NCBI RefSeq assembly: GCF_003991155.1 | Contig: NZ_CP031294.1 | Length of the DNA stretch: 64,000 nucleotides | Reading direction: 5' to 3' (one strand) | Origin: Escherichia coli | Lineage (GTDB): Bacteria; Pseudomonadota; Gammaproteobacteria; Enterobacterales; Enterobacteriaceae | Made by a program: the position numbers and the translations under genes | Shown: piece after piece, positions 12,501 to 56,894 of the stretch | Layout of the letters: every line of letters starts with the position of its first letter | How positions within the stretch are numbered: the stretch's first letter is position 1 | The notes under the pieces: generated by a model | Seen by the model: only the letters and a program-made list of their open reading frames with translations | Databases searched by the model: none | What the model was told of the DNA's origin: nothing

Positions 12501-14287
12501 ATAGGTTCGAGGTCTGGTTCTGTAATAGTCCAGACGCCGTTCAAAACAGGCGTTTCAGCCGAAGACAGGGCTTTTGAAAACGTAACTTTTGTTATATTTT
12601 CGCCAGTTTCAAGAACATCGCGTTCAACGATTTTGCCTTCCTGATTCAGTATTCGAATAAAGCAGCCGCCTTTGGCTAACGACACAGGCGCATCGAGTGT
12701 GACGCTGTTTTTGGTAAACGCCACAATTCGACCTGAGTTACGTTTGCCTGCGCGATATTTGTTCTGAATCAGAACGGTTTCACCAGGCATCAGAAATGAC
12801 GCGTCTAAGCCGGCAGTAAATGTAATTACATCCGACTCCATTCTGGCGGTATATAAAAGCCACAAACCAACTCGGTGAGCCTGCCCTCGGCTTGTACAGC
12901 CAAATGCTACGACTTCTGTTTTACGCTCACCATAACGGCGCATTGCGTCCTGATCTTCGACGTACTCGATGTTTTGCTTATAACCGTCCTCCTTGTTGTT
13001 GTAGGTTACGAGCGCAACGGATGGGCGATCTTTACGCGCAGAACCTTTATAGGTAAACAATCCATCTTTGACGTTAGAGTTGGTAAACATCATTACCGGA
13101 TCTGATGGGCTATCCTGCATGATGTTAACCATCCCACCAGCCCAAAACACCATGCCGCGGAATGCTCCGGCAATATCCTGAATTAGCCGGTATGCGTCCT
13201 GTCGACTGGTGATCTGCGTATTGATTGCAAAGCGTTTCTCTTTGCCACCAAAGCCATCATCGACCTCTTCGTCACAATATCGACCAATCTGGTACAACTG
13301 GCCAAGGTCAATCATAGATTCCGACACATACTGACCAAGGCCATATCGAGCATTGGTCAGCAAATCAAAGAGAATCCACGCGGGGTTCGAAGAAGACAAC
13401 AGCTTAAAAGTGCCATCCCATACCCCAGCGTAAGTGTTACTGGACTCGTTATAGTTTGAAGGTACTCGAATTTTTAGGCCACGCACCAGATAAGAGCGAG
13501 ATGGCATGGTGCTGCCGAATTGCTCAGAGTTTACCTTCAATCCAACCAAAACAGAGTTTGGATAGTTCATCGGTGTATCGACAATTTCCCCGATTGAATC
13601 CACCCATGTATCGTTATAGAGATACTGGCTACTGTTATCATCGGTAATACGGACCACACGAACCTTGTATGCTCGTCCAGGCTTAGGCAGCTTCAGCTCA
13701 TAGCTACGGTAATAAACGCCGGTCTTCTTTGCTGTTAGCTTAATGCCAACGCTTTTTTCACCTTCAGCGACCACATCTACAAATGTTGAGTCGCCATTTG
13801 CTATCTGGAACTTGTACTCAACAGTCGTACCGTTCGTGTCACCAGTTTTTTTATCTATGCTTCGCAAAGAAGGAAACTTCATGATGACACGAACCCGATC
13901 AGCTTCATCGTTATCGATTGAAACCGTTACATAATGTGTTTTTTTTAACTGGATATTGACGGATTTAGGCGTTTCAACGAAATCAAAGCCAGACATTGGA
14001 GTCTGGTCTTGTGAACCGTCGCGAAAATCCCATGTGATTCCGCTGAAGTTGGAGGAACCGTCTTCATTTACAATCGGCAGATCGTCGATAAAAATAGATC
14101 TTGCGCCATTTACTAAGCCGCCAATTACCCCTTCCCCAAGAAGATCGAGGATAGCGGCCATTGCACGAGAATTTACGGTATCGTCGGCTTCAACCGGTGT
14201 ACGGCTGGAGCTTTTGCTGCTTTTTTTACCACCCGCACCGGCAATAAACAGCGGTAGCTTTTTCTTCTTGAACTGTTCCATGTTCAA
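9554..14287 (-). CDS. central tail fibre / host specificity protein (lambda J-like N-terminal two-thirds, fibronectin-III region, then a long tandem coiled-coil repeat array and a distinct C-terminal domain)
   Basis: The 1577-aa product starts MNMEQFKKKKLPLFIAGAGGKKSSKSSSRTPVEADDTVNSRAMAAILDLLGEGVIGGL, like J. The gene sits directly downstream of the I/K/L/M-like genes. At least ten about 28-aa repeats of the form DISAAI-x-QEARA-x-D-x-AL-x-QITQLQ-x-KV follow. Confidence 0.85.
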   Translation of the reverse strand: MNMEQFKKKKLPLFIAGAGGKKSSKSSSRTPVEADDTVNSRAMAAILDLLGEGVIGGLVNGARSIFIDDLPIVNEDGSSNFSGITWDFRDGSQDQTPMSGFDFVETPKSVNIQLKKTHYVTVSIDNDEADRVRVIMKFPSLRSIDKKTGDTNGTTVEYKFQIANGDSTFVDVVAEGEKSVGIKLTAKKTGVYYRSYELKLPKPGRAYKVRVVRITDDNSSQYLYNDTWVDSIGEIVDTPMNYPNSVLVGLKVNSEQFGSTMPSRSYLVRGLKIRVPSNYNESSNTYAGVWDGTFKLLSSSNPAWILFDLLTNARYGLGQYVSESMIDLGQLYQIGRYCDEEVDDGFGGKEKRFAINTQITSRQDAYRLIQDIAGAFRGMVFWAGGMVNIMQDSPSDPVMMFTNSNVKDGLFTYKGSARKDRPSVALVTYNNKEDGYKQNIEYVEDQDAMRRYGERKTEVVAFGCTSRGQAHRVGLWLLYTARMESDVITFTAGLDASFLMPGETVLIQNKYRAGKRNSGRIVAFTKNSVTLDAPVSLAKGGCFIRILNQEGKIVERDVLETGENITKVTFSKALSSAETPVLNGVWTITEPDLEPMRVRIVNIAQGETPGSFDITAVENNPSKYEAIDNGATLIPQNTTVLDPTYSKPSNLQITEGTYLSSPGNLSVKLTATWEGKSPEYWISWRRSDENNVSNWQSARVTEEQYEIVNVAENGRYDFQLYAVSFNGKKTEIISTVYQVLGTMTPPDAPTSLTAVGDYRNVILNWVNPDSVDLDHINVYASQTNNLDTAKLIAESASTTFTHAGLGDSETWYYWVRASNKRGMLSPPNSNLGTEATTRDVLSFLTGKITSSELGQALLEDINSKASQEAVDELNEHINQSVESLEGAVNDVKEDIAELDKQFSDNLADFEIKFNERSDALENAQTELKGEVSATIDKVNEAFEKIDATDAAIVEIENTVSEHDKALANTVEAIKAARDEAAALIAKESEARVEGDAANAKQLEVLQSTVEESSAAVEEMKKTVAEVDRASAELTTNIEALAKTNIDLALRQDEDQHKQMVNNAKIATTQKTFADDMSAMATKVEEIRVEIGEDIKASILEESTARADGDEALAKRVTQLQSKFEGDISAAISTEQEARTSADEALTTQITQLESKVSNDIVAAIKEEQEARATEDSALASQITQLQAKVDDDISAAIRSEQEARASGDSALAKQINQLQSKVDGDISAAITQEQEARASADQALSREINSLRAQTGTDIAAAVAVETKARTDADSALSTQITSLTAKANDLEASLARETTARADGDTALTKEVSSLKAQTAKDISAAVAVETQARTDADSALSSQITKLTSQYKEDIKAAVATETKTRTEQDAALATQITNLESQTAANISAAVTTETTARTQADNALSGRIDTLKAEVDGNTATIQQQATAIADTNKKVSTAWTLKMETSTSGGQKYVAGIALGIDTTGLSQFLVQADRFGLVNSVNGKITTPFVIENSIAYMNGAYIKDGTITNAKVGDLQSTNFVSGRSGWRFGKNGTLEINGNSGGNGRLVINGQRIDVYDDNNVLRVRIGRL

Positions 14288-37190: not shown

Positions 37191-37613
37191 ATGAAATACT
37201 CGCTTCTCCCTCTACTAACGTTACCAGTGTTGATGCTTGCCGCGTGCCAATCACACCCAATATCAATCCATGACGCCAAACCAGCACCGCAGGCCAAAGT
37301 GTTCAAGTATCAAAGCGCAGCGCCAGCTACGTTGGTGGTAATGAGAGACACAGGTTTTGTAGGAGCTGGATGTGATGCTTCCATTTTCATCAACGGCGAA
37401 ACTGTCGCAAAACTGGCTACAGGCGAAAAAGCGACTTTCCATTTAAATGCCGGAGAATTAATTGTGGGTGCATCTCTTGAAGGTGCAGGTTTATGTGCTC
37501 TAAACCCCGCTCGTCAAGAGCGAGAAACGACTCTGAAGAATGGAGACACAAAAGCGTTCAGGGTGTTTACCAGCAATTCTGGTGACATCGACATTCTGCC
37601 AACAACTCTGTGA
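37191..37613 (+). CDS. lipoprotein (signal peptide with lipobox LAAC)
   Basis: MKYSLLPLLTLPVLMLAACQSHP... The start is moved to the internal ATG, which gives a canonical lipoprotein signal sequence. Confidence 0.55.
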   Translation: MKYSLLPLLTLPVLMLAACQSHPISIHDAKPAPQAKVFKYQSAAPATLVVMRDTGFVGAGCDASIFINGETVAKLATGEKATFHLNAGELIVGASLEGAGLCALNPARQERETTLKNGDTKAFRVFTSNSGDIDILPTTL

Positions 37614-37615
37614 TG

Positions 37616-38142
37616 ACATGACAACCAAAGATATTACCTACGGTATCCAAGCTGAACTCTGGCCGCGAGATTACACTAACGTTGAAAAACTACTGATGTT
37701 CTGGCGCAGAGAACAAATTCCTGTAAGGGTCACTCTCGAAGATGGCCAGGCGTTTTGCATGTACGTTTATGGCCTCATGCCATCTCGTAACAAAGTTGAC
37801 CTTTGCCCAGCCCCTTTTGACAAAGAAAATCGTATAAGGCTCCCACTTGAACGCATTAGTACAATTGAATCAGGTGTGGTTGACAGTATCGCTCACGATT
37901 TCAAAGGTCGACTAACAGTTCACCCTGATTATGTCGATAATCGGCCATCACGCCGCGATTTTTTTGCAATTTGCAACCAAGCCTACAAAGCAAACAAATC
38001 TATAAGGGTGTACATGGCGGATGGCCGTGAAATTGAGGGGGTGTCAGCAGGCGCAGATGCTTGTCAGGTTACACTACGTGTCGAGAACGGTAGAAAAATA
38101 GTTGTTTTGTTCGATTGGGTTGAACGAATTTTGCCTTTTTGA
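37616..38142 (+). CDS. hypothetical protein (about 175 aa)
   Basis: The ORF begins MTTKDITYGIQAELWPRDY... The start is chosen at the first ATG after the lipoprotein stop. Confidence 0.4.
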
Positions 38143-38145
38143 GTT

Positions 38146-38454
38146 ATGAAATCGATATTGTTACCACCATTATTTTTACTTTGCTCAGTTGCGGCAAATG
38201 CAATGGACTATAAGCCTGTCATTCAGTCGCTGATGAATGACGTGTGCTCAACGTCTCAGAATGTATCAGTTTGCATGTATCAATTTTCGGCAGCCGTAAA
38301 AGCAGGAAAAGCGATAGGCGAGAATGTGGAACTGTGTAAGAAAGTGGCAAATGAAGAACGGGCAATGTTGGATTGCGAATCTAGCGAGTCATCGGCACAG
38401 TTCGTTGATGCGCTATTTGACACCAATCGTAAGGCTGTAGAGTCTGTTCAATAA
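38146..38454 (+). CDS. small secreted Cys-containing protein (signal peptide)
   Basis: MKSILLPPLFLLCSVAANA followed by a hydrophilic domain with four Cys. The start is 4 nt after the preceding stop. Confidence 0.5.
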   Translation: MKSILLPPLFLLCSVAANAMDYKPVIQSLMNDVCSTSQNVSVCMYQFSAAVKAGKAIGENVELCKKVANEERAMLDCESSESSAQFVDALFDTNRKAVESVQ

Positions 38455-38465
38455 ATCTATAAGGT

Positions 38466-38495
38466 TAATAACCGGCTAAGTCCGGTTATTATTTT
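38466..38495 (+). terminator. rho-independent terminator (TAACCGGCTAAGTCCGGTTA plus T-run)
   Basis: Perfect 7-bp stem followed by TTATTTTT, 12 nt after the stop codon. Confidence 0.6.
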
Positions 38496-38645
38496 TCACA
38501 TCACTTCTTTATATCTACAAATCAAATAACCTAAATATATATAAGGTCTAAAGCCGCAATCAATTATTTATTTAGGGAACACCTTCGACGATCTCGCTTT
38601 TATTTCTAGGACTTTCATCCCTGCAAAAAATTTAAAAAAAAACAC

Positions 38646-38673
38646 TTGCAATCTTTTTTCGCATATCGATAAT
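38646..38673 (+). promoter_or_regulatory. sigma70-like promoter of the AT-rich cassette (TTGCAA, 16 nt, GATAAT) with an upstream A-tract
   Basis: Read directly from aaaaaatttaaaaaaaaacacTTGCAAtcttttttcgcatatcGATAATtgaac. An AAGGAAAAA RBS precedes the ATG at 38739. Confidence 0.5.
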
Positions 38674-38738
38674 TGAACTCGTCGAAAGCGAAGACGCTAA
38701 CGACAATAAATTTTAAATTTACATAAGGAAAAATTATC

Positions 38739-39389
38739 ATGGCTAACATTATCATTTCTAAAAAATCCATCATTGAAGCTGCTTCCATTGTATCCGATGA
38801 ACTGCGCGAAAAAGCAGATCTGGCAACTCAAACATATAACGAACATTATAAAAATGGTACGCACACTAAAGCAGACAAAGCAAATATGCAAGCTGCGACC
38901 ACTAAACTTGCTTACTTCATCAACAACGTCGTAAACGCAGTAGAAGACGAAAAATTATGCTCTGTTTTCTACTATGCGATTAAAGCAAGCAAACAAGCGC
39001 CAGAAGTATTTTTCCGTGATGCAATGACTAATAGTTATTCTCTGGAAAAACTGGTTTATCTGGTTAAATCAATTAAATCTGGTAAATGCGTTTATTCCAT
39101 CGCTGATATGTCTGGATCTCGTGTATTCGCTTTAATCGATATGATTAACGACGAGATCGACACGTTCACTAATGGCGCTGTTTTCGATTTAATGAATGAA
39201 GCTAAAAAAGCGTGTGAAATTAAATTGGACGCTGGTTATACTCAAGCCAACCAGTTGATCAATCTTTGCGAACGTCTTGGACTTGTTGAAAAAGTCAAAG
39301 GAGCTGGGAGCGCGAAAGCTGGTACTCAGCAATATCGCTTCATTAAAAATGATTTCTACAATTATTTAGCTGATGCTTTCAAAGCGTAA
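38739..39389 (+). CDS. hypothetical protein (216 aa), first gene of the AT-rich cassette
   Basis: Good RBS and own promoter. Terminator hairpin 12 nt after the stop. Confidence 0.55.
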   Translation: MANIIISKKSIIEAASIVSDELREKADLATQTYNEHYKNGTHTKADKANMQAATTKLAYFINNVVNAVEDEKLCSVFYYAIKASKQAPEVFFRDAMTNSYSLEKLVYLVKSIKSGKCVYSIADMSGSRVFALIDMINDEIDTFTNGAVFDLMNEAKKACEIKLDAGYTQANQLINLCERLGLVEKVKGAGSAKAGTQQYRFIKNDFYNYLADAFKA

Positions 39390-39401
39390 TTAATGGAATC
39401 A

Positions 39402-39426
39402 AGCGCCCACTATGGGCGCTTTAAAG
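39402..39426 (+). terminator. hairpin AGCGCCCACTATGGGCGCT plus TTT (copy 1 of a duplicated terminator)
   Basis: Perfect 7-bp GC-rich stem. An identical hairpin sits at 39898. Confidence 0.55.
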
Positions 39427-39437
39427 GAGCTTTGAAA

Positions 39438-39641
39438 ATGGTCAGCTATGACAAGATCCGCGCGGAATATCGCGCAAAGTATCGCGCTTATAAACTAGAA
39501 TTAATCGATGATTTAATCGCGCAACGCGACCAATTAAATTTTACGTTTTCTGATTTGCTTAACAGCAAGCGAGATTGCAAGCGCAAACGTGAATACTTAC
39601 GTTTAAGCGCATTAATCGGAAAACTTCAAAATTCTATTTAA
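39438..39641 (+). CDS. small basic helical protein (67 aa)
   Basis: The AAAGGAG RBS lies immediately after the terminator hairpin. The start is reassigned from the track ORF, whose first codons lie inside the hairpin. Confidence 0.45.
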   Translation: MVSYDKIRAEYRAKYRAYKLELIDDLIAQRDQLNFTFSDLLNSKRDCKRKREYLRLSALIGKLQNSI

Positions 39642-39661
39642 TTTTTTTAAGGAGCTTAATC

Positions 39662-39892
39662 ATGTTTGTTCTTATCGCTGGCGTTAACGTCCATAACGAA
39701 TATTATGTTAATCGCATCGCTGGGATCGCTGGTTACGCTGGGCGCGCAGTCGAGTTTATCGATGAAACAACGCGTAAAATTGATTTATTGAGCGACCAGG
39801 AGCGAAAAAAAGCAGACGTGAACGACGCTGATATATTTTTAATGTTAAAAGCGTTTGTAGAAATGGGATTTAAAATCAGTTTACACAAATAA
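39662..39892 (+). CDS. hypothetical small protein (76 aa)
   Basis: TTAAGGAGC RBS. Followed by a terminator. Confidence 0.45.
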   Translation: MFVLIAGVNVHNEYYVNRIAGIAGYAGRAVEFIDETTRKIDLLSDQERKKADVNDADIFLMLKAFVEMGFKISLHK

Positions 39893-39896
39893 AATC

Positions 39897-39921
39897 GAGC
39901 GCCCACTATGGGCGCTTTTTT
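39897..39921 (+). terminator. rho-independent terminator (copy 2 of AGCGCCCACTATGGGCGCT, plus TTTTTT)
   Basis: Identical hairpin to the one at 39402, followed by six T. Confidence 0.7.
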
Positions 39922-39942
39922 CGTTTCCAATACTTCCACAAT

Positions 39943-39970
39943 AACGCGCCATTGATGGCGCGTTTTTTAT
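39943..39970 (+). terminator. second tandem terminator (AACGCGCCATTGATGGCGCGTT plus TTTTTT)
   Basis: Perfect 8-bp stem plus T-run. Confidence 0.6.
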
Positions 39971-40379
39971 TGTCTTTAACTCACTCCAACAACATAAAAA
40001 TAAGCGCCAAAATAACGCCATAAACGCGCTTTTATATCCTTACCAGTACATACCCATTACTTAACACATTAACGCGCTTAAAACGCGTTATATTGCGCTA
40101 TAGCGTATGGTTAATCATTGGCTTTTAGTCTTGCTATGTGATCCGCGTTTATTTGTCGGCGCGGATCGGCATTTTGTTTTGTTCCGTATCCGCTCGCGTA
40201 TTATGTGCGCGTGATTTTTCACATAATCACACCACTTAATCACGTATGTGATTATGCTACGAAAGAAATCTGGATGTCTCAGGCGACGAAAGTCATCATA
40301 ATTTTCCCCGCTCGCCTGTCCGACAACCGCTGGTTGGATTCCACCAGCTTCCCGATGTTTTTTTCTACATAAAGGCGAA

Positions 40380-40500
40380 TGCAGCCGTTTCCCGAAAAAA
40401 TCCTGGCCGTTTCCCGTCGGCTCATGAATACGTTCCTCGCCGTTTCTGAAAATTTCCCTGCGGCAGCTGGTGGCTATAGAGAAAGGGCCGTTTCTGGCCC
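40380..40500. repeat. iteron cluster 1: four copies of GCCGTTTC(C/T) followed by CGAAAA/TGAAAA-type sequence
   Basis: The copies are gcagccgtttcccgaaaaaatcc, tggccgtttcccgtcgg, ctcgccgtttctgaaaatttccctg and gggccgtttctggccc. Confidence 0.5.
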
Positions 40501-40509
40501 TCTTCTCAG

Positions 40510-40992
40510 TTACACGCCATCAAGGATGTGGATGCGGTTGCTTGCGTATACATTCAGCATAAAGTTAGCGCAAAACAGTTTCCATGTATCAACGCCAGCG
40601 GTATACGTAATGTTTTTGCATTTAATCGCATTGTTGGCGATCCGCATCCCCTGCGATACTGCTTCATCGTCGGAAAATTTGAACGACGATTGAGTTTTAA
40701 TCCAGACAGAAATCTGCGTAGCGAACTCAATCAGCTTGGACTGGCAGAATCGCCCGGAGCGCACCGGAAAGACGAACGTTCCGAATCCAGAATTTACCAC
40801 ATATGCTTTCTCAAATACCCGCGAGTAACGACGATTGCCAATGATGTCGCGTGCAATAATGCATTTTTCTTGTGCTGACAGTTCTACCGTCTCATTGTCG
40901 CGCCATGCACCAAGTACTCGTTTTTCAATGTCAGAGAACGTTACAGCGATATTGCCATGTGCGGGTGCGTTTACAGTAGCGATAAAATTCAT
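40510..40992 (-). CDS. hypothetical protein (160 aa)
   Basis: AAGGAAT RBS. The operator element lies 20 to 55 bp upstream. Confidence 0.5.
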   Translation of the reverse strand: MNFIATVNAPAHGNIAVTFSDIEKRVLGAWRDNETVELSAQEKCIIARDIIGNRRYSRVFEKAYVVNSGFGTFVFPVRSGRFCQSKLIEFATQISVWIKTQSSFKFSDDEAVSQGMRIANNAIKCKNITYTAGVDTWKLFCANFMLNVYASNRIHILDGV

Positions 40993-50837: not shown

Positions 50838-52396
50838 ATGAAAATGACAAGTATTCAACAACGTGCAGAGCTTCATCGCCAGATCTGGCAAATTGCTAAC
50901 GATGTCAGGGGTTCAGTCGATGGATGGGATTTTAAGCAGTACGTTTTGGGCGCGCTTTTTTACCGTTTTATCAGCGAAAATTTTTCCAGTTATATTGAAG
51001 CCGGTGATGACAGTATCTGTTATGCGAAACTGGATGACAGCGTAATTACTGATGACATTAAAGACGATGCCATCAAAACTAAAGGCTACTTCATCTACCC
51101 CAGTCAGCTTTTCTGCAACGTAGCTGCGAAAGCAAATACTAATGACAGACTGAATGCAGATTTAAACAGCATCTTCGTTGCTATCGAAAGTTCTGCTTAC
51201 GGTTATCCTTCAGAAGCTGACATCAAAGGTTTGTTTGCTGATTTCGATACCACCAGTAACCGCCTGGGTAACACCGTTAAAGATAAAAATGCCCGCTTGG
51301 CTGCGGTTCTGAAAGGGGTTGAAGGGCTAAAACTTGGTGACTTCCATGAACATCAGATTGACCTGTTCGGTGACGCCTATGAGTTCCTGATTTCTAACTA
51401 TGCGGCGAATGCCGGTAAGTCCGGCGGCGAGTTCTTTACACCGCAGCACGTCTCTAAGCTGATTGCACAACTGGCTATGCACGGGCAGACCCACGTTAAC
51501 AAAATCTACGACCCGGCAGCAGGCTCCGGTTCGCTGTTGTTGCAGGCGAAAAAACAGTTTGATGACCATATCATCGAAGAAGGTTTTTTTGGTCAGGAAA
51601 TCAACCATACGACCTATAACCTGGCGCGTATGAACATGTTTTTGCACAACATCAACTACGACAAGTTTGATATCAAGCTGGGTAATACACTGACTGAGCC
51701 GCACTTCAGAGATGAAAAACCGTTTGATGCCATCGTTTCTAACCCGCCGTATTCGGTGAAATGGATTGGCAGCGATGACCCGACGCTGATTAACGATGAA
51801 CGTTTTGCCCCGGCTGGCGTTCTGGCCCCCAAATCCAAAGCTGACTTTGCGTTTGTATTACATGCGCTGAACTATCTTTCGGCCAAAGGTCGCGCTGCGA
51901 TTGTCTGCTTCCCAGGCATTTTTTACCGTGGCGGCGCGGAGCAGAAAATCCGTCAGTATCTGGTCGACAATAACTATGTCGAAACCGTGATTTCACTGGC
52001 ACCGAATCTGTTCTTTGGCACCACTATTGCCGTCAATATTCTGGTGCTGTCTAAACATAAAACGGATACCAAAGTTCAGTTTATTGATGCCAGCGAACTG
52101 TTCAAAAAAGAGACTAACAACAACATTCTGACCGATGCTCATATCGAACAGATTATGCAGGTATTTGCCAGCAAGGAAGATGTTGCTCATCTGGCGAAAT
52201 CTGTTGCGTTTGAGACTGTTGTCGCGAATGACTATAACCTGTCGGTGAGCAGCTATGTGGAAGCGAAAGATACTCGCGAAATTATCGATATCGCTGAGCT
52301 GAATGCTGAGCTGAAAACCACGGTCAGCAAAATCGACCAGTTGCGTAAAGATATTGATGCGATTGTTGCTGAGATTGAAGGTAGCGAGGTACAGGC

Positions 52397-52400
<4 letters not shown>
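50838..52400 (+). CDS. hsdM: type I restriction-modification methyltransferase subunit HsdM (type IC, EcoR124-family)
   Basis: [25 protein letters not shown]... An AdoMet-binding region and a catalytic SNPPYSVKW (NPPY) motif are present. The stop overlaps the hsdS start. Confidence 0.9.
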
Positions 52401-53656
<1,256 letters not shown>

Positions 53657-53777
53657 TTGACCATTGCTACCGACCGGATCACCTTAACATCCGGTCTATA
53701 TAGAGACTATTTTTTACACGCCGGAAGTCGCCCTTAAAGCCCTTCCGGCCCTTGCCAGACGGCACAAAGGATGCGCT

Positions 53778-56700
53778 ATGACTCATCAGACACACACCAT
53801 TGCTGAATCCAATAACTTTATCGTTCTTGATAAGTACATCAAAGCCGAGCAAACAGGCGACAGCTACCAGAGCGAATCGGACCTGGAACGTGAACTGATT
53901 CAGGATCTGCGGAATCAGGGCTATGAATTTATTTCCGTAAAATCTCAGTCGGCGATGCTGGCCAACGTTCGGGAACAGCTTCAGAGCCTCAATGGTGTGA
54001 TGTTTAATGACAGCGAGTGGCGGCGCTTCACGGAGCAGTATCTGGACAACCCCAGCGATGGTATTCTGGATAAAACCCGTAAAATCCATATCGACTATAT
54101 CTGCGACTTTATTTTTGACGACGGGCGACTTGAGAACATCTATTTGATAGATAAAAAGAATCTCATGCGCAATAAGGTGCAGATTATCCAGCAGTTTGAA
54201 CAGACGGGTTCTCATGCTAACCGTTATGACGTCACGATCCTGGTTAATGGTTTACCGCTGGTGCAAATCGAACTAAAAAAACGCGGGGTGGCGATTCGTG
54301 AGGCTTTCAACCAGATACATCGTTACAGTAAAGAGAGTTTTAACAGCGAAAATTCCCTGTTTAAGTATCTGCAACTGTTTGTCATTTCTAACGGCACCGA
54401 TACCCGTTATTTTGCCAACACGACAAAGCGCGATAAAAACAGTTTTGACTTCACCATGAATTGGGCGAAATCAGACAACACGCTGATTAAAGACCTCAAA
54501 GACTTTACCGCTACCTTTTTCCAGAAACATACTCTGCTGAATGTTCTGGTGAACTACAGCGTTTTTGACAGTAGTCAGACGCTACTGGTGATGCGACCGT
54601 ACCAGATTGCCGCCACCGAGCGCATTCTGTGGAAAATTAAGAGTTCCTTTACAGCGAAGAACTGGTCAAAACCGGAAAGCGGTGGGTATATCTGGCATAC
54701 TACCGGTTCTGGTAAAACCCTCACCAGCTTTAAAGCCGCGCGTCTGGCAACAGAGCTGGACTTTATTGATAAAGTCTTCTTTGTGGTCGACAGGAAAGAC
54801 CTCGATTACCAGACCATGAAGGAATATCAGCGTTTTTCGCCAGACAGCGTCAACGGCTCGGAAAATACCGCAGGCCTTAAACGAAATCTGGATAAGGACG
54901 ATAACAAAATTATCGTCACTACTATTCAGAAACTCAATAACCTGATGAAAGCAGAAAGCGACCTGCCTGTATATAATCAGCAAGTGGTGTTTATATTTGA
55001 TGAATGCCACCGCAGCCAGTTTGGAGAAGCGCAGAAAAACCTGAAGAAGAAATTCAAACGCTATTATCAGTTTGGTTTTACCGGCACCCCTATTTTCCCG
55101 GAAAACGCTTTAGGCTCAGAAACGACCGCCAGCGTATTTGGTCGTGAATTGCATTCGTATGTAATTACCGATGCGATTCGTGATGAAAAAGTGCTCAAAT
55201 TCAAGGTGGACTACAACGATGTGCGGCCACAGTTTAAATCTTTAGAGACAGAAACCGACGAGAAAAAACTGAGTGCGGCTGAAAATCAGCAGGCATTTCT
55301 TCATCCCATGCGTATACAGGAAATTACGCAATATATTCTGAATAACTTCCGCCAGAAGACCCACCGTACTTTCCCAGGTTCCAAAGGCTTTAATGCCATG
55401 CTGGCAGTGAGTAGCGTGGATGCCGCGAAAGCCTATTACGCGACGTTTAAACGGTTACAAGAGGAAGCAGCTAATAAATCGGCTACCTATAAACCGCTGC
55501 GTGTTGCAACAATCTTCTCCTTTGCCGCCAATGAAGAACAAAATGCCATTGGTGAAATTTCCGATGAAACTTTTGATACCAGCGCAATGGACAGCAGTGC
55601 TAAAGAGTTTCTTGACGCTGCAATTCGTGAGTATAACAGCTATTTTAAAACTAACTTCAGCACCGACAGTAACGGTTTTCAGAACTACTATCGTGATTTA
55701 GCCCAACGGGTTAAAAATCAGGATATCGATCTGTTAATTGTCGTTGGGATGTTTTTAACCGGCTTCGACGCTCCAACATTGAACACGCTATTCGTCGATA
55801 AAAACTTGCGTTTTCACGGCCTGATGCAGGCATTCTCCCGTACCAACCGCATTTATGACGCTACTAAAACCTTCGGTAACATCGTCACTTTTCGGGATCT
55901 GGAACGCTCAACCATTGATGCCATAACGCTGTTTGGTGATAAAAATACTAAAAATGTGGTGTTAGAAAAGAGTTATGCTGAGTATATGGAAGGCTTTACA
56001 GATGCTGCCACTGGTGAAGCTAAACGCGGCTTTATGGCAGTAGTTTCAGAACTGGAACAACGGTTCCCTGACCCTGCCAGTATTGAAAGTGAAAAACAGA
56101 AGAAAGACTTCGTAAAACTGTTTGGTGAATACCTGCGTGCCGAGAACATCCTGCAAAACTATGATGAATTTGCCACGCTGAAAGCCCTGCAACAAATCGA
56201 TCTTAGCGATCCTGTTGCGGTAGAAAAATTCAAAGCAGAACATTATGTGGATGATGAAAAGTTCGCTGAATTGCAAACAATTCGTCTCCCTGCTGAACGC
56301 AAGATTCAGGATTATCGTTCTGCCTATAACGATATTCGCGACTGGCAGCGCCGTGAGAAAGAAGCTGAGAAAAAAGAGAAATCAACCACTGACTGGGATG
56401 ACGTAGTTTTTGAGGTCGATTTGCTGAAGTCTCAGGAAATAAACCTGGATTATATCCTTGGACTGATTTTCGAACACAACAGACAAAATAAAGGCAAGGG
56501 CGAAATGATCGAAGAGGTCAAACGCTTAATTCGTTCAAGCCTGGGGAACCGGGCGAAAGAGGGCCTGGTGGTCGATTTTATTCAGCAAACGAACCTGGAT
56601 GATTTACCAGACAAAGCCAGTATCATTGAGGCATTCTTTACGTTTGCTCAACGCGAACAGCAACGTGAAGCAGAAGCATTGATAAAAGAAGAAAATCTCA

Positions 56701-56894
56701 ATGAAGAGGCGGCGAAACGCTATATTCGCACGTCTTTAAAACGCGAATACGCCACCGAAAATGGCACAGAATTAAACGAGACATTACCAAAACTTAGTCC
56801 GTTAAACCCGCAATATAAAACGAAAAAACAGACCGTTTTCCAGAAAATCGTCACGTTTATTGAAAAGTTCAAAGGAGTAGGTGGGCAGATATAG
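53778..56894 (+). CDS. hsdR: type I restriction enzyme endonuclease/translocase subunit HsdR
   Basis: The 1038-aa product has an SF2 helicase Walker A …TGSGKT…, a DEAH/DECH-like …[16 protein letters not shown]… and helicase C-terminal motifs. It lies 122 bp after hsdS. Confidence 0.9.

Follow-up and report, generated by a model that had tools for sequence, protein, structure and literature searches.

A likely core transcription unit of SSU5-type phage-plasmids with a predicted winged-helix gene and a hairpin-bounded accessory slot

Results

A three-gene unit is shared across SSU5-type phage-plasmids

We analyzed an AT-rich three-gene unit (positions 38500-39975) in a 64,000-nucleotide (nt) stretch of Escherichia coli DNA (contig NZ_CP031294.1 of assembly GCF_003991155.1), called the window below. 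The results favor, with a probability of roughly 0.6, a reading of this locus as a conserved core transcription unit of SSU5-type phage-plasmids, consisting of a winged-helix gene and a hairpin-bounded slot for accessory genes, and the first gene (gene 1) most likely encodes a DNA-binding regulator that acts outside lysogeny. A 1.55-kb region at the locus is 100% identical to the E. coli plasmid NZ_OW849379.1 (110.7 kb), an SSU5-type phage-plasmid. Matches to the locus were found in 777 PLSDB plasmids, from Klebsiella, Escherichia, Enterobacter, Yersinia, Salmonella, Citrobacter, and Cronobacter, and in 12 phage records; all are SSU5-like phage-plasmids, and they take in SSU5 itself, the E. 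coli phage Cyrano, and Yersinia pestis pMT1.

We compared 90 loci, comprising 8 annotated records, 80 IMG/VR contigs, the source plasmid record (locus L001), and the window. Gene 1 is present in all 90 and always in the same place. SSU5, pMT1, and pHCM2-type elements, as well as those of Klebsiella, Enterobacter, Cronobacter, and Xenorhabdus, share the gene order helicase, orf92, further genes, FljA-like gene, and gene 1. Five Xenorhabdus-type loci were fetched, two of them on one shared contig, which leaves four distinct loci; their gene 1 protein is 31-33% identical, and both the synteny (helicase, 92-residue open reading frame (ORF), FljA-like gene, gene 1) and the motifs upstream of gene 1 are retained. 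An initial annotation of the window had taken the unit for a separately acquired module, which is at odds with a gene and a regulatory region that are core and syntenic across the SSU5 family as far as Xenorhabdus. Gene 1 is not a recent acquisition.

The three ORFs called in that annotation are all under purifying selection and are therefore real genes. Gene 1 encodes 216 amino acids (aa; 38739-39389, plus strand; phrog_1513, SSU5 gp120, CYRAN_113, WP_001273881.1) and has a ratio of nonsynonymous to synonymous substitution rates (dN/dS) of 0.07-0.10. The ratios of the two optional genes behind it are 0.05-0.08 for g2 (67 aa, 39438-39641, plus strand; phrog_6145) and 0.06-0.43 for g3 (76 aa, 39662-39892, plus strand; phrog_1585, CYRAN_112). 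PHROGs lists phrog_1513 and phrog_1585 as being of unknown function.

The GC content of 38500-39975 is 37.2%, compared to a mean of 46.3% for the window (standard deviation 3.4%, in 1476-nt segments). Only 13 of 1251 such segments are equally low, and the unit is one of three such troughs in the 64 kb. A drop from about 50% to below 40% for exactly this unit had been described; the value below 40% holds, while the left flank lies at 42-47% rather than 50%, and the low-GC zone, at about 38350-40150, extends slightly beyond the unit. Gene 1 has a frequency of optimal codons (Fop) of 0.61, computed with a list of optimal codons, and a GC content at third codon positions of 0.34. The scaffold-like protein and the major-tail candidate both have an Fop of 0.60, and among the sampled phage genes only the major capsid protein (0.72) lies above gene 1. 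Much of the AT-richness appears to reflect A/T-ending preferred codons together with Lys/Asn/Ile content, so that low GC would be weak evidence of foreign origin.

Gene 1 encodes a predicted winged-helix DNA-binding protein

In the AlphaFold model, the gene 1 product has a helical hairpin at its N-terminus and a winged helix-turn-helix (HTH) at its C-terminus; in the latter, a modeled three-helix bundle with a recognition helix leads into a beta-hairpin wing. T168, Q169, and Q172 of the recognition helix show little or no variation throughout the family, down to 21-33% identity, and the model contains no enzymatic or pore-like domain. Gene 1 is thus predicted to encode a winged-helix DNA-binding protein, and because of this fold the product looks like a regulator rather than an effector.

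The initial annotation found none of the three proteins recognizable. At the level of curated families this agrees with our searches, in which gene 1, g2, and g3 have no match above threshold in Pfam, NCBIfam, or PADLOC; it does not extend to the fold, since the gene 1 model shows a winged helix. A PDB profile search with the gene 1 alignment returned 0 matches at an E-value of 10 or below, and no curated winged-helix profile in Pfam, NCBIfam, or PDB matches gene 1 even at E = 10. A Foldseek search of BFVD with the model gave weak winged-helix matches only and no full-length analogue. The closest functional analogues are the winged-helix regulators ArsR/SmtB, MarR, and PadR and the centromere binder TubR. 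Gene 1 differs from these in that its sequence profile matches no Pfam or PDB family and that it has no recognizable metal- or ligand-binding motif, and for its 120-residue N-terminal helical domain, with the invariant motif NSYSLEKLVYL, no counterpart was found. When 1.84 billion representative proteins were searched exhaustively with a profile, just 23 members of the gene 1 family were recovered, and every member whose context could be retrieved belongs to an SSU5-like contig of about 100-110 kb. For all three proteins, homologues are almost confined to Enterobacterales contigs of about 100-115 kb.

The region upstream of gene 1 carries a conserved promoter, sequence blocks, and a leader stem-loop

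A predicted sigma-70-type promoter lies at 38625-38673 on the plus strand, with a -35 hexamer TTGCAA (38646-51), a 16-nt spacer, and a -10 hexamer GATAAT (38668-73). The -35 hexamer is preceded by an 18-nt run of pure A/T (38625-42) that resembles an UP element. A 9/12 match to the promoter consensus is by itself no better than chance, with 16 such matches found and 12 expected in 6 kb. The hexamers, their spacing, and their position are nevertheless kept in about 80 distinct relatives, and this conservation makes the promoter, which had already been pointed out with its A-tract, a credible one. On the 5' side, the unit is insulated by the terminator of the upstream gene orf102 (38466-38491, plus strand), which was detected in a terminator scan as a 10-bp stem followed by the T-run TTTTTCAC.

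Between this terminator and the promoter, three conserved non-coding blocks at 38535-38615 (plus strand) are candidate regulator sites: ATATATAAGG (38537-46), TTTATTTAGGGAACACCTTC (38567-86), and TTATTTCTAGGACTTT (38600-15). At least 90% of their columns are conserved over 80 distinct upstream sequences, which is stronger conservation than that of the coding sequence, and they are still recognizable in the Xenorhabdus relatives. Because each block is single-copy in the 110.7-kb plasmid, the blocks would suit a regulator dedicated to this locus, for which gene 1 itself is a possibility. We considered and rejected the idea that they are operators of a global phage repressor, as the plasmid holds no further copies.

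The leader of the predicted mRNA contains a stem-loop, GUCG-AA-AGCG-AAGA-CGCU-AA-CGAC, at 38681-38704 (plus strand), starting at about +3, with a minimum free energy of -9.8 kcal/mol (z = -2.5). In the alignment, 92% of the cells are paired and 5 of the 8 pairs show double-sided changes. The observed score was reached by 0 of 500 shuffles, and slid controls are 12-43% paired. The Xenorhabdus relatives keep a stem-loop of different sequence at this site of the 5' untranslated region (UTR). A strong Shine-Dalgarno sequence precedes gene 1.

One hairpin sequence serves as a T-poor internal copy and as a terminator

The 19-nt hairpin AGCGCCCACTATGGGCGCT occurs exactly twice in the window (39402 and 39898), where 0 occurrences are expected by chance, and these are also the only two copies in the whole 110.7-kb plasmid; the identical duplication that had been described is therefore genuine. 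Copy 1 (39402-39420, plus strand) has an 8-bp stem with the loop CTA and is followed by TTAAAGGAG, which contains no U-tract. The ribosome-binding site AAGGAG (39424-29) of g2 comes directly after it, and only 17 nt separate the end of the hairpin from the g2 ATG. Copy 2, behind g3, forms together with six T a canonical intrinsic terminator (39898-39922, plus strand). It is followed by a second, different terminator, AACGCGCCATTGATGGCGCGTT with a T-run (39943-39970, plus strand; hairpin 39943-39964), as the initial annotation stated, and copy 2 and this second hairpin fold together at -32 kcal/mol (z = -5.7). A stem-loop followed by a U-tract is thus present in copy 2 and in the second hairpin but not in copy 1. 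With its own predicted promoter, the orf102 terminator, and two 3' terminators, the unit is insulated, in agreement with the earlier description.

The relatives show the same division. In the 8 nt behind internal hairpin copies there are 3.4 T, and the leading T-run is 1.4; behind single or last copies, the 8 nt contain 5.9-6.0 T and the leading T-run is 4.2-4.9. These T-poor internal copies and the adjacent AAGGAG uphold the view of copy 1 as an attenuator ahead of the g2 ribosome-binding site; judged from its sequence context, copy 1 looks like a leaky attenuator or a 3'-stabilizer at a cassette junction. Because the 17 nt between copy 1 and the g2 start, with the Shine-Dalgarno sequence in them, leave no room for a promoter, transcription of g2 and g3 must come from read-through. 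Attenuating terminators within operons, such as those of ribosomal-protein operons and filamentous phage, likewise place a stable hairpin that lacks a full U-tract between a highly expressed first gene and later genes with lower expression, and have a full terminator at the operon end. The SSU5-type arrangement differs in that the attenuator and the final terminator share one 19-nt sequence, which is exact across lineages with a synonymous divergence (dS) of about 1.

About 15% of copies carry the 3-nt loop of the hairpin (39410-39412 and 39906-39908 in the window) in inverted form, TAG instead of CTA, and even elements that share an identical gene 1 protein can differ in this respect (loci L007, L012, L014, L022, and others). 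The second terminator behaves similarly in the relatives, with a conserved stem and a loop that varies or flips (ATTGTT to AACAAT). These flips suggest frequent hairpin- or cruciform-mediated inversion. In Rfam, the terminators gave sub-threshold matches only.

The Xenorhabdus relatives have another terminator stem, ATCCGCT/AGCGGAT, while retaining the recognition helix and the upstream motifs. This difference weakens the idea that the hairpin is a conserved target of the gene 1 recognition helix, and we do not adopt it. Nor is the hairpin a dispersed repeat, since it is confined to this locus in the plasmid and found almost only at this locus in IMG/VR. On the contig of an unrelated phage (L091, IMGVR_UViG_3300031925_000025), which has no gene 1 homologue, an exact copy of the 19-nt hairpin with a T-run (12915-12933) ends a tail/baseplate-like operon; this copy could be due either to chance or to terminator transfer.

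The slot behind gene 1 holds variable cassettes

The content of the slot varies among the 90 loci: it is empty in 10, and it holds g2 in 28, g3 in 23, g2-g3 in 20, g3-g3 in 2, and a divergent 67-aa g2-like ORF in 5. The four distinct Xenorhabdus-type loci have no small gene behind gene 1. One hairpin copy follows gene 1 and another normally follows each cassette. In locus L026, two g3 alleles stand side by side, each with its own hairpin, and since they are only 46% identical, this array was made by between-lineage recombination and not by simple duplication. In loci L138 and L107, a 44-bp hairpin unit stands in tandem, in two or three copies.

In the window, the g2 stop codon TAA runs directly into TTTTTTTAAGGAGCTTAATCATG (TTTTTTTAAGGAG). 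In Cyrano, this same g3 leader is preceded by a hairpin, and in SSU5 the g2 stop is followed by GCAAT and the hairpin. Given these two junctions, the arrangement in the window is best read as hairpin-g2-hairpin-g3-hairpin from which the middle palindrome would have been precisely lost.

This slot resembles the PeSL cassettes of T4-type phages, in which small ORFs of no known function are flanked by copies of a conserved regulatory stem-loop and related genomes differ in how many cassettes they have and in what these contain, implying recombination at the repeats; Arbiol, Comeau and Krisch (2010) reportedly described them as "mobile regulatory cassettes". The SSU5-type repeat, however, is a terminator hairpin without a promoter and bounds a single slot instead of hyperplastic regions. 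Integrons have attC sites of 57-141 bp with R/L boxes and an adjacent IntI integrase with attI. The SSU5-type repeat is instead a 19-nt perfect hairpin, and the nearest integrase gene in the record is about 53 kb away, so the locus is not an integron cassette array.

g2 and g3 encode small proteins without a recognized family

g2, an optional cassette found in about half of the 90 loci, encodes a basic (isoelectric point 9.7) helical protein. The sole PADLOC match of any of the three proteins, that of g2 to PDC-M47B (E = 0.027, 12 bits), is noise. In SSU5 (SSU5_119, NC_018843), in some plasmid records, and in PHROGs, g2 bears the legacy label "MIT family metal ion transporter / CorA". A metal transporter identity for this soluble basic protein was rejected, as none of the searches made with it backs the label, which appears to have spread from record to record.

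g3 (allele type b in the window, ribosome-binding site AAGGAG at 39649-54) is likewise an optional cassette. Its AlphaFold2 model has low confidence (predicted local distance difference test score of 63) and shows a small alpha/beta fold of the ferredoxin/ACT-like beta-alpha-beta-beta-alpha-beta type, for which the structural matches are generic and were not relied on. Homologues of g3 vary in length in-frame by 3 or 6 residues (70, 73, and 76 aa). The variation sits in the segment IAGIAGYAG (codons 19-27, 39716-39742), which is encoded by imperfect ATCGCTGGN repeats.

The homologous unit is silent in a related lysogen

The only data set found in the literature on pHCM2 or SSU5 transcriptomes is that of the Cyrano lysogen of E. 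coli LF82, a related element and not this plasmid. Normalized expression there is 5.9 for CYRAN_113 (gene 1) and 5.0 for CYRAN_112 (g3), compared to a floor of 4.99, a prophage median of 9.8, and 18-114 for neighboring genes (PMC9928086, S1 table). These values at the floor indicate that the unit, in that relative at least, is not expressed in the plasmid state. CYRAN_113 is up about 8-fold at the last macrophage time point, together with many other Cyrano genes, and the log2 values of 5.6 for gene 1 and 4.6 for g3 at that point fit attenuation weakly (PMC9928086, S1 table).

Genes around the unit

The unit ends a short plus-strand block of a UvsW-like helicase, a 92-aa ORF, a lipoprotein, the FljA-like gene, a 102-aa ORF, gene 1, g2, and g3. 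The annotated minus-strand neighbors are tail, head, terminase, and ParB-like/ABC-ATPase genes, and past the unit comes a long run of small minus-strand genes.

The FljA-like gene (37540-38142, plus strand) matches the "repressor of phase-1 flagellin" over its full length (PF03614, E = 2.5e-84). It lies just 5' of gene 1 in most relatives, Xenorhabdus included, and the C-terminus of its product has a weak Hfq-like match. FljA is a post-transcriptional repressor of fliC mRNA (PMC2652032). The FljA-like gene is probably a flagellin-silencing moron, because it is expressed in the Cyrano lysogen. A link between its product and the 5'-UTR stem-loop of gene 1 is conceivable, but is weakened by loci L087 and L088, which keep the stem-loop and have no FljA-like gene within 2.5 kb.

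The 102-aa ORF (38146-38454; phrog_9536, possible signal peptide) between the FljA-like gene and gene 1 is missing from the corresponding position in SSU5, pMT1, and Cyrano, which makes this position another variable insertion point. The sequence AAATCTATAAGG is present twice, at 37996 and 38453. The recognizable accessory defense locus of the plasmid is a type I restriction-modification system elsewhere (hsdM, hsdS, hsdR; 50838-56894), whose hsdS region is also a low-GC trough (about 51900-52750).

Discussion

The favored reading combines these results as follows. The A/T-tract promoter, the 5'-proximal stem-loop, the strong Shine-Dalgarno sequence, the capsid/tail-like codon bias, and the tandem terminators are signals of a high-output mRNA. 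The product of gene 1 would be a dimeric, sequence-specific DNA binder, with the winged HTH for DNA binding and the helical hairpin as a dimerization arm. It would be made in a burst outside lysogeny, during lytic growth or just after infection, and would act as a regulator or a DNA-organizing factor, possibly as a regulator of lytic or establishment transcription that is autoregulated via the upstream motifs. The small genes, having no promoter of their own, would depend on read-through of the proximal hairpin, whose U-tract would have been lost, and their expression would be lower. Cassettes would turn over by recombination and slipped deletion at the hairpin copies, and the arrangement in the window would derive from an array of two cassettes by precise loss of the middle hairpin.

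Several observations weigh against this reading. The high codon bias of gene 1 is unusual for a classical low-copy regulator. The expression data come from one related lysogen, with values at the array floor, and for this reason the "lytic" timing of gene 1 is an inference. The 19-nt hairpin is exact in relatives whose gene 1 has a dS of about 1 or more, which exceeds the needs of a generic terminator.

Among the alternatives, the one that retains most weight, though still improbable, makes gene 1 an origin- or centromere-binding protein acting on the adjacent intergenic region, as a second (lytic) origin or a partition site. Between the three-gene unit and a convergent 160-aa gene lies a 535-bp non-coding gap (39975-40510) with four direct GCCGTTTC(C/T) repeats at 40384-40495, spaced by 22, 33, and 48 bp. 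This cluster is unique in the 110.7-kb plasmid, lies 40 kb from repA, and is kept in all relatives, Xenorhabdus included; the repeats are candidate iterons of a second origin, or a candidate centromere. Two strong terminators and about 400 bp nevertheless separate the gene 1 unit from the repeats, no partner NTPase or helicase loader adjoins, and gene 1 has no sequence similarity to the Rep, O, or TubR families. Its codon bias also implies a copy number far above the needs of an initiator.

Somewhat less probable still is an early anti-defense or host-takeover operon of the acr-aca type, in which g2 and g3 would be variable inhibitors and gene 1 an HTH autorepressor of a strong early promoter. 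The variable, swappable small ORFs behind a strong promoter, the HTH protein on the same transcript, the upstream motifs, single-copy in the plasmid as they should be for a local autoregulator, and the silence of the Cyrano unit in lysogeny would all suit such an operon. The gene order, however, is opposite to that of typical acr-aca operons, and the regulator would be the top-expressed product while the small ORFs are attenuated. Many elements have gene 1 but no small ORF, and g2 and g3 match no known anti-defense family, PHROGs giving no function for g3.

We give a similarly low weight to the proposal that the 19-nt hairpin is a sequence-specific recombination or recognition element defining a miniature gene-cassette slot, into which ORF-plus-hairpin modules are captured, stacked, swapped, and deleted; the palindrome might then be recognized by the adjacent winged-helix protein or by a host factor. 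The proposal keeps this weight because of the exact stem at such divergence, the frequent loop flips, and the arrays of one to four hairpins with divergent alleles. If true, it would represent a form of cassette exchange in phage-plasmids with an outcome like that of integrons or T4 PeSLs but homologous to neither.

It is unlikely that the unit is a moron, or lysogenic-conversion gene, with conditional expression. Such a gene would be silenced in standard culture, by H-NS for instance, and switched on in particular host environments, where its winged-helix protein would reprogram host transcription. Morons, a concept that goes back to Hendrix and Juhala, resemble the unit in their autonomous promoter and terminator, in a GC content below that of the surroundings, and in presence/absence variation, here of g2 and g3. 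The unit also adjoins the FljA-like gene, a flagellin-repressor homologue that is expressed in the lysogen, and the late rise of CYRAN_113 in macrophages would fit. Gene 1, on the other hand, is core and never absent in the relatives, whereas morons are typically polymorphic, and only g2 and g3 show such polymorphism. The unit is unexpressed in the one lysogen examined, and the simultaneous rise of many other Cyrano genes is consistent with low-level induction.

The reading proposed in the initial annotation, a toxin-antitoxin, abortive-infection, or other conflict system with a 216-aa effector and small proteins as regulators or antidotes, is very unlikely, as co-occurrence, homology, genomic position, and expression state all speak against it. 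The compact, insulated, AT-rich layout with small basic and acidic partner proteins would suit a defense module, and curing an SSU5-like plasmid in Klebsiella raised plasmid uptake and phage burst, a whole-plasmid effect for which no gene was mapped (PMC8969562). The likeness to type II toxin-antitoxin systems, however, ends with the compact multi-gene layout and a DNA-binding protein. Gene 1 stands alone in at least 10 of the 90 loci and in the Xenorhabdus relatives, and elsewhere occurs with g2, g3, or both; its natural occurrence without them argues against a toxin that needs g2 or g3. The genes are not an obligate set and the small ones are interchangeable, so the format of a large effector with two small regulators does not apply, gene 1 itself being the predicted DNA binder, with no enzymatic or pore-like domain in its modeled fold. 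The family searches that had been suggested for recognizing a defense system gave no match in PADLOC, Pfam, or NCBIfam, and no toxin-antitoxin partner exceeded threshold in these databases. Gene 1 is core and syntenic and does not lie in a variable island or a defense hotspot, the real defense locus of the plasmid being elsewhere. The floor-level expression of the Cyrano homologues in the carrier state counts further against this reading, because a toxin-antitoxin or prophage defense system should be expressed in the lysogen.

The locus is thus an uncharacterized but ordinary-looking phage regulatory gene with accessory cassettes, of moderate-to-low general interest but useful for work on the biology of SSU5-type phage-plasmids. 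A false lead is removed, in that the unit is not a recognizable defense or toxin-antitoxin system, and the misleading annotation of the 67-aa protein as an "MIT/CorA metal transporter" is corrected. The hairpin-bounded slot provides a clean natural case in which accessory genes turn over at a regulatory hairpin that is repeated. Clinical Enterobacteriaceae very commonly carry SSU5-type phage-plasmids, and the locus is present in about 780 PLSDB plasmids, including Yersinia pestis pMT1 and the Salmonella Typhi pHCM2 type. As a universally conserved gene with the signals of high expression, a predicted DNA-binding product, and silence in the lysogen, gene 1 is a concrete candidate for lytic control or for an origin or centromere function in this family.

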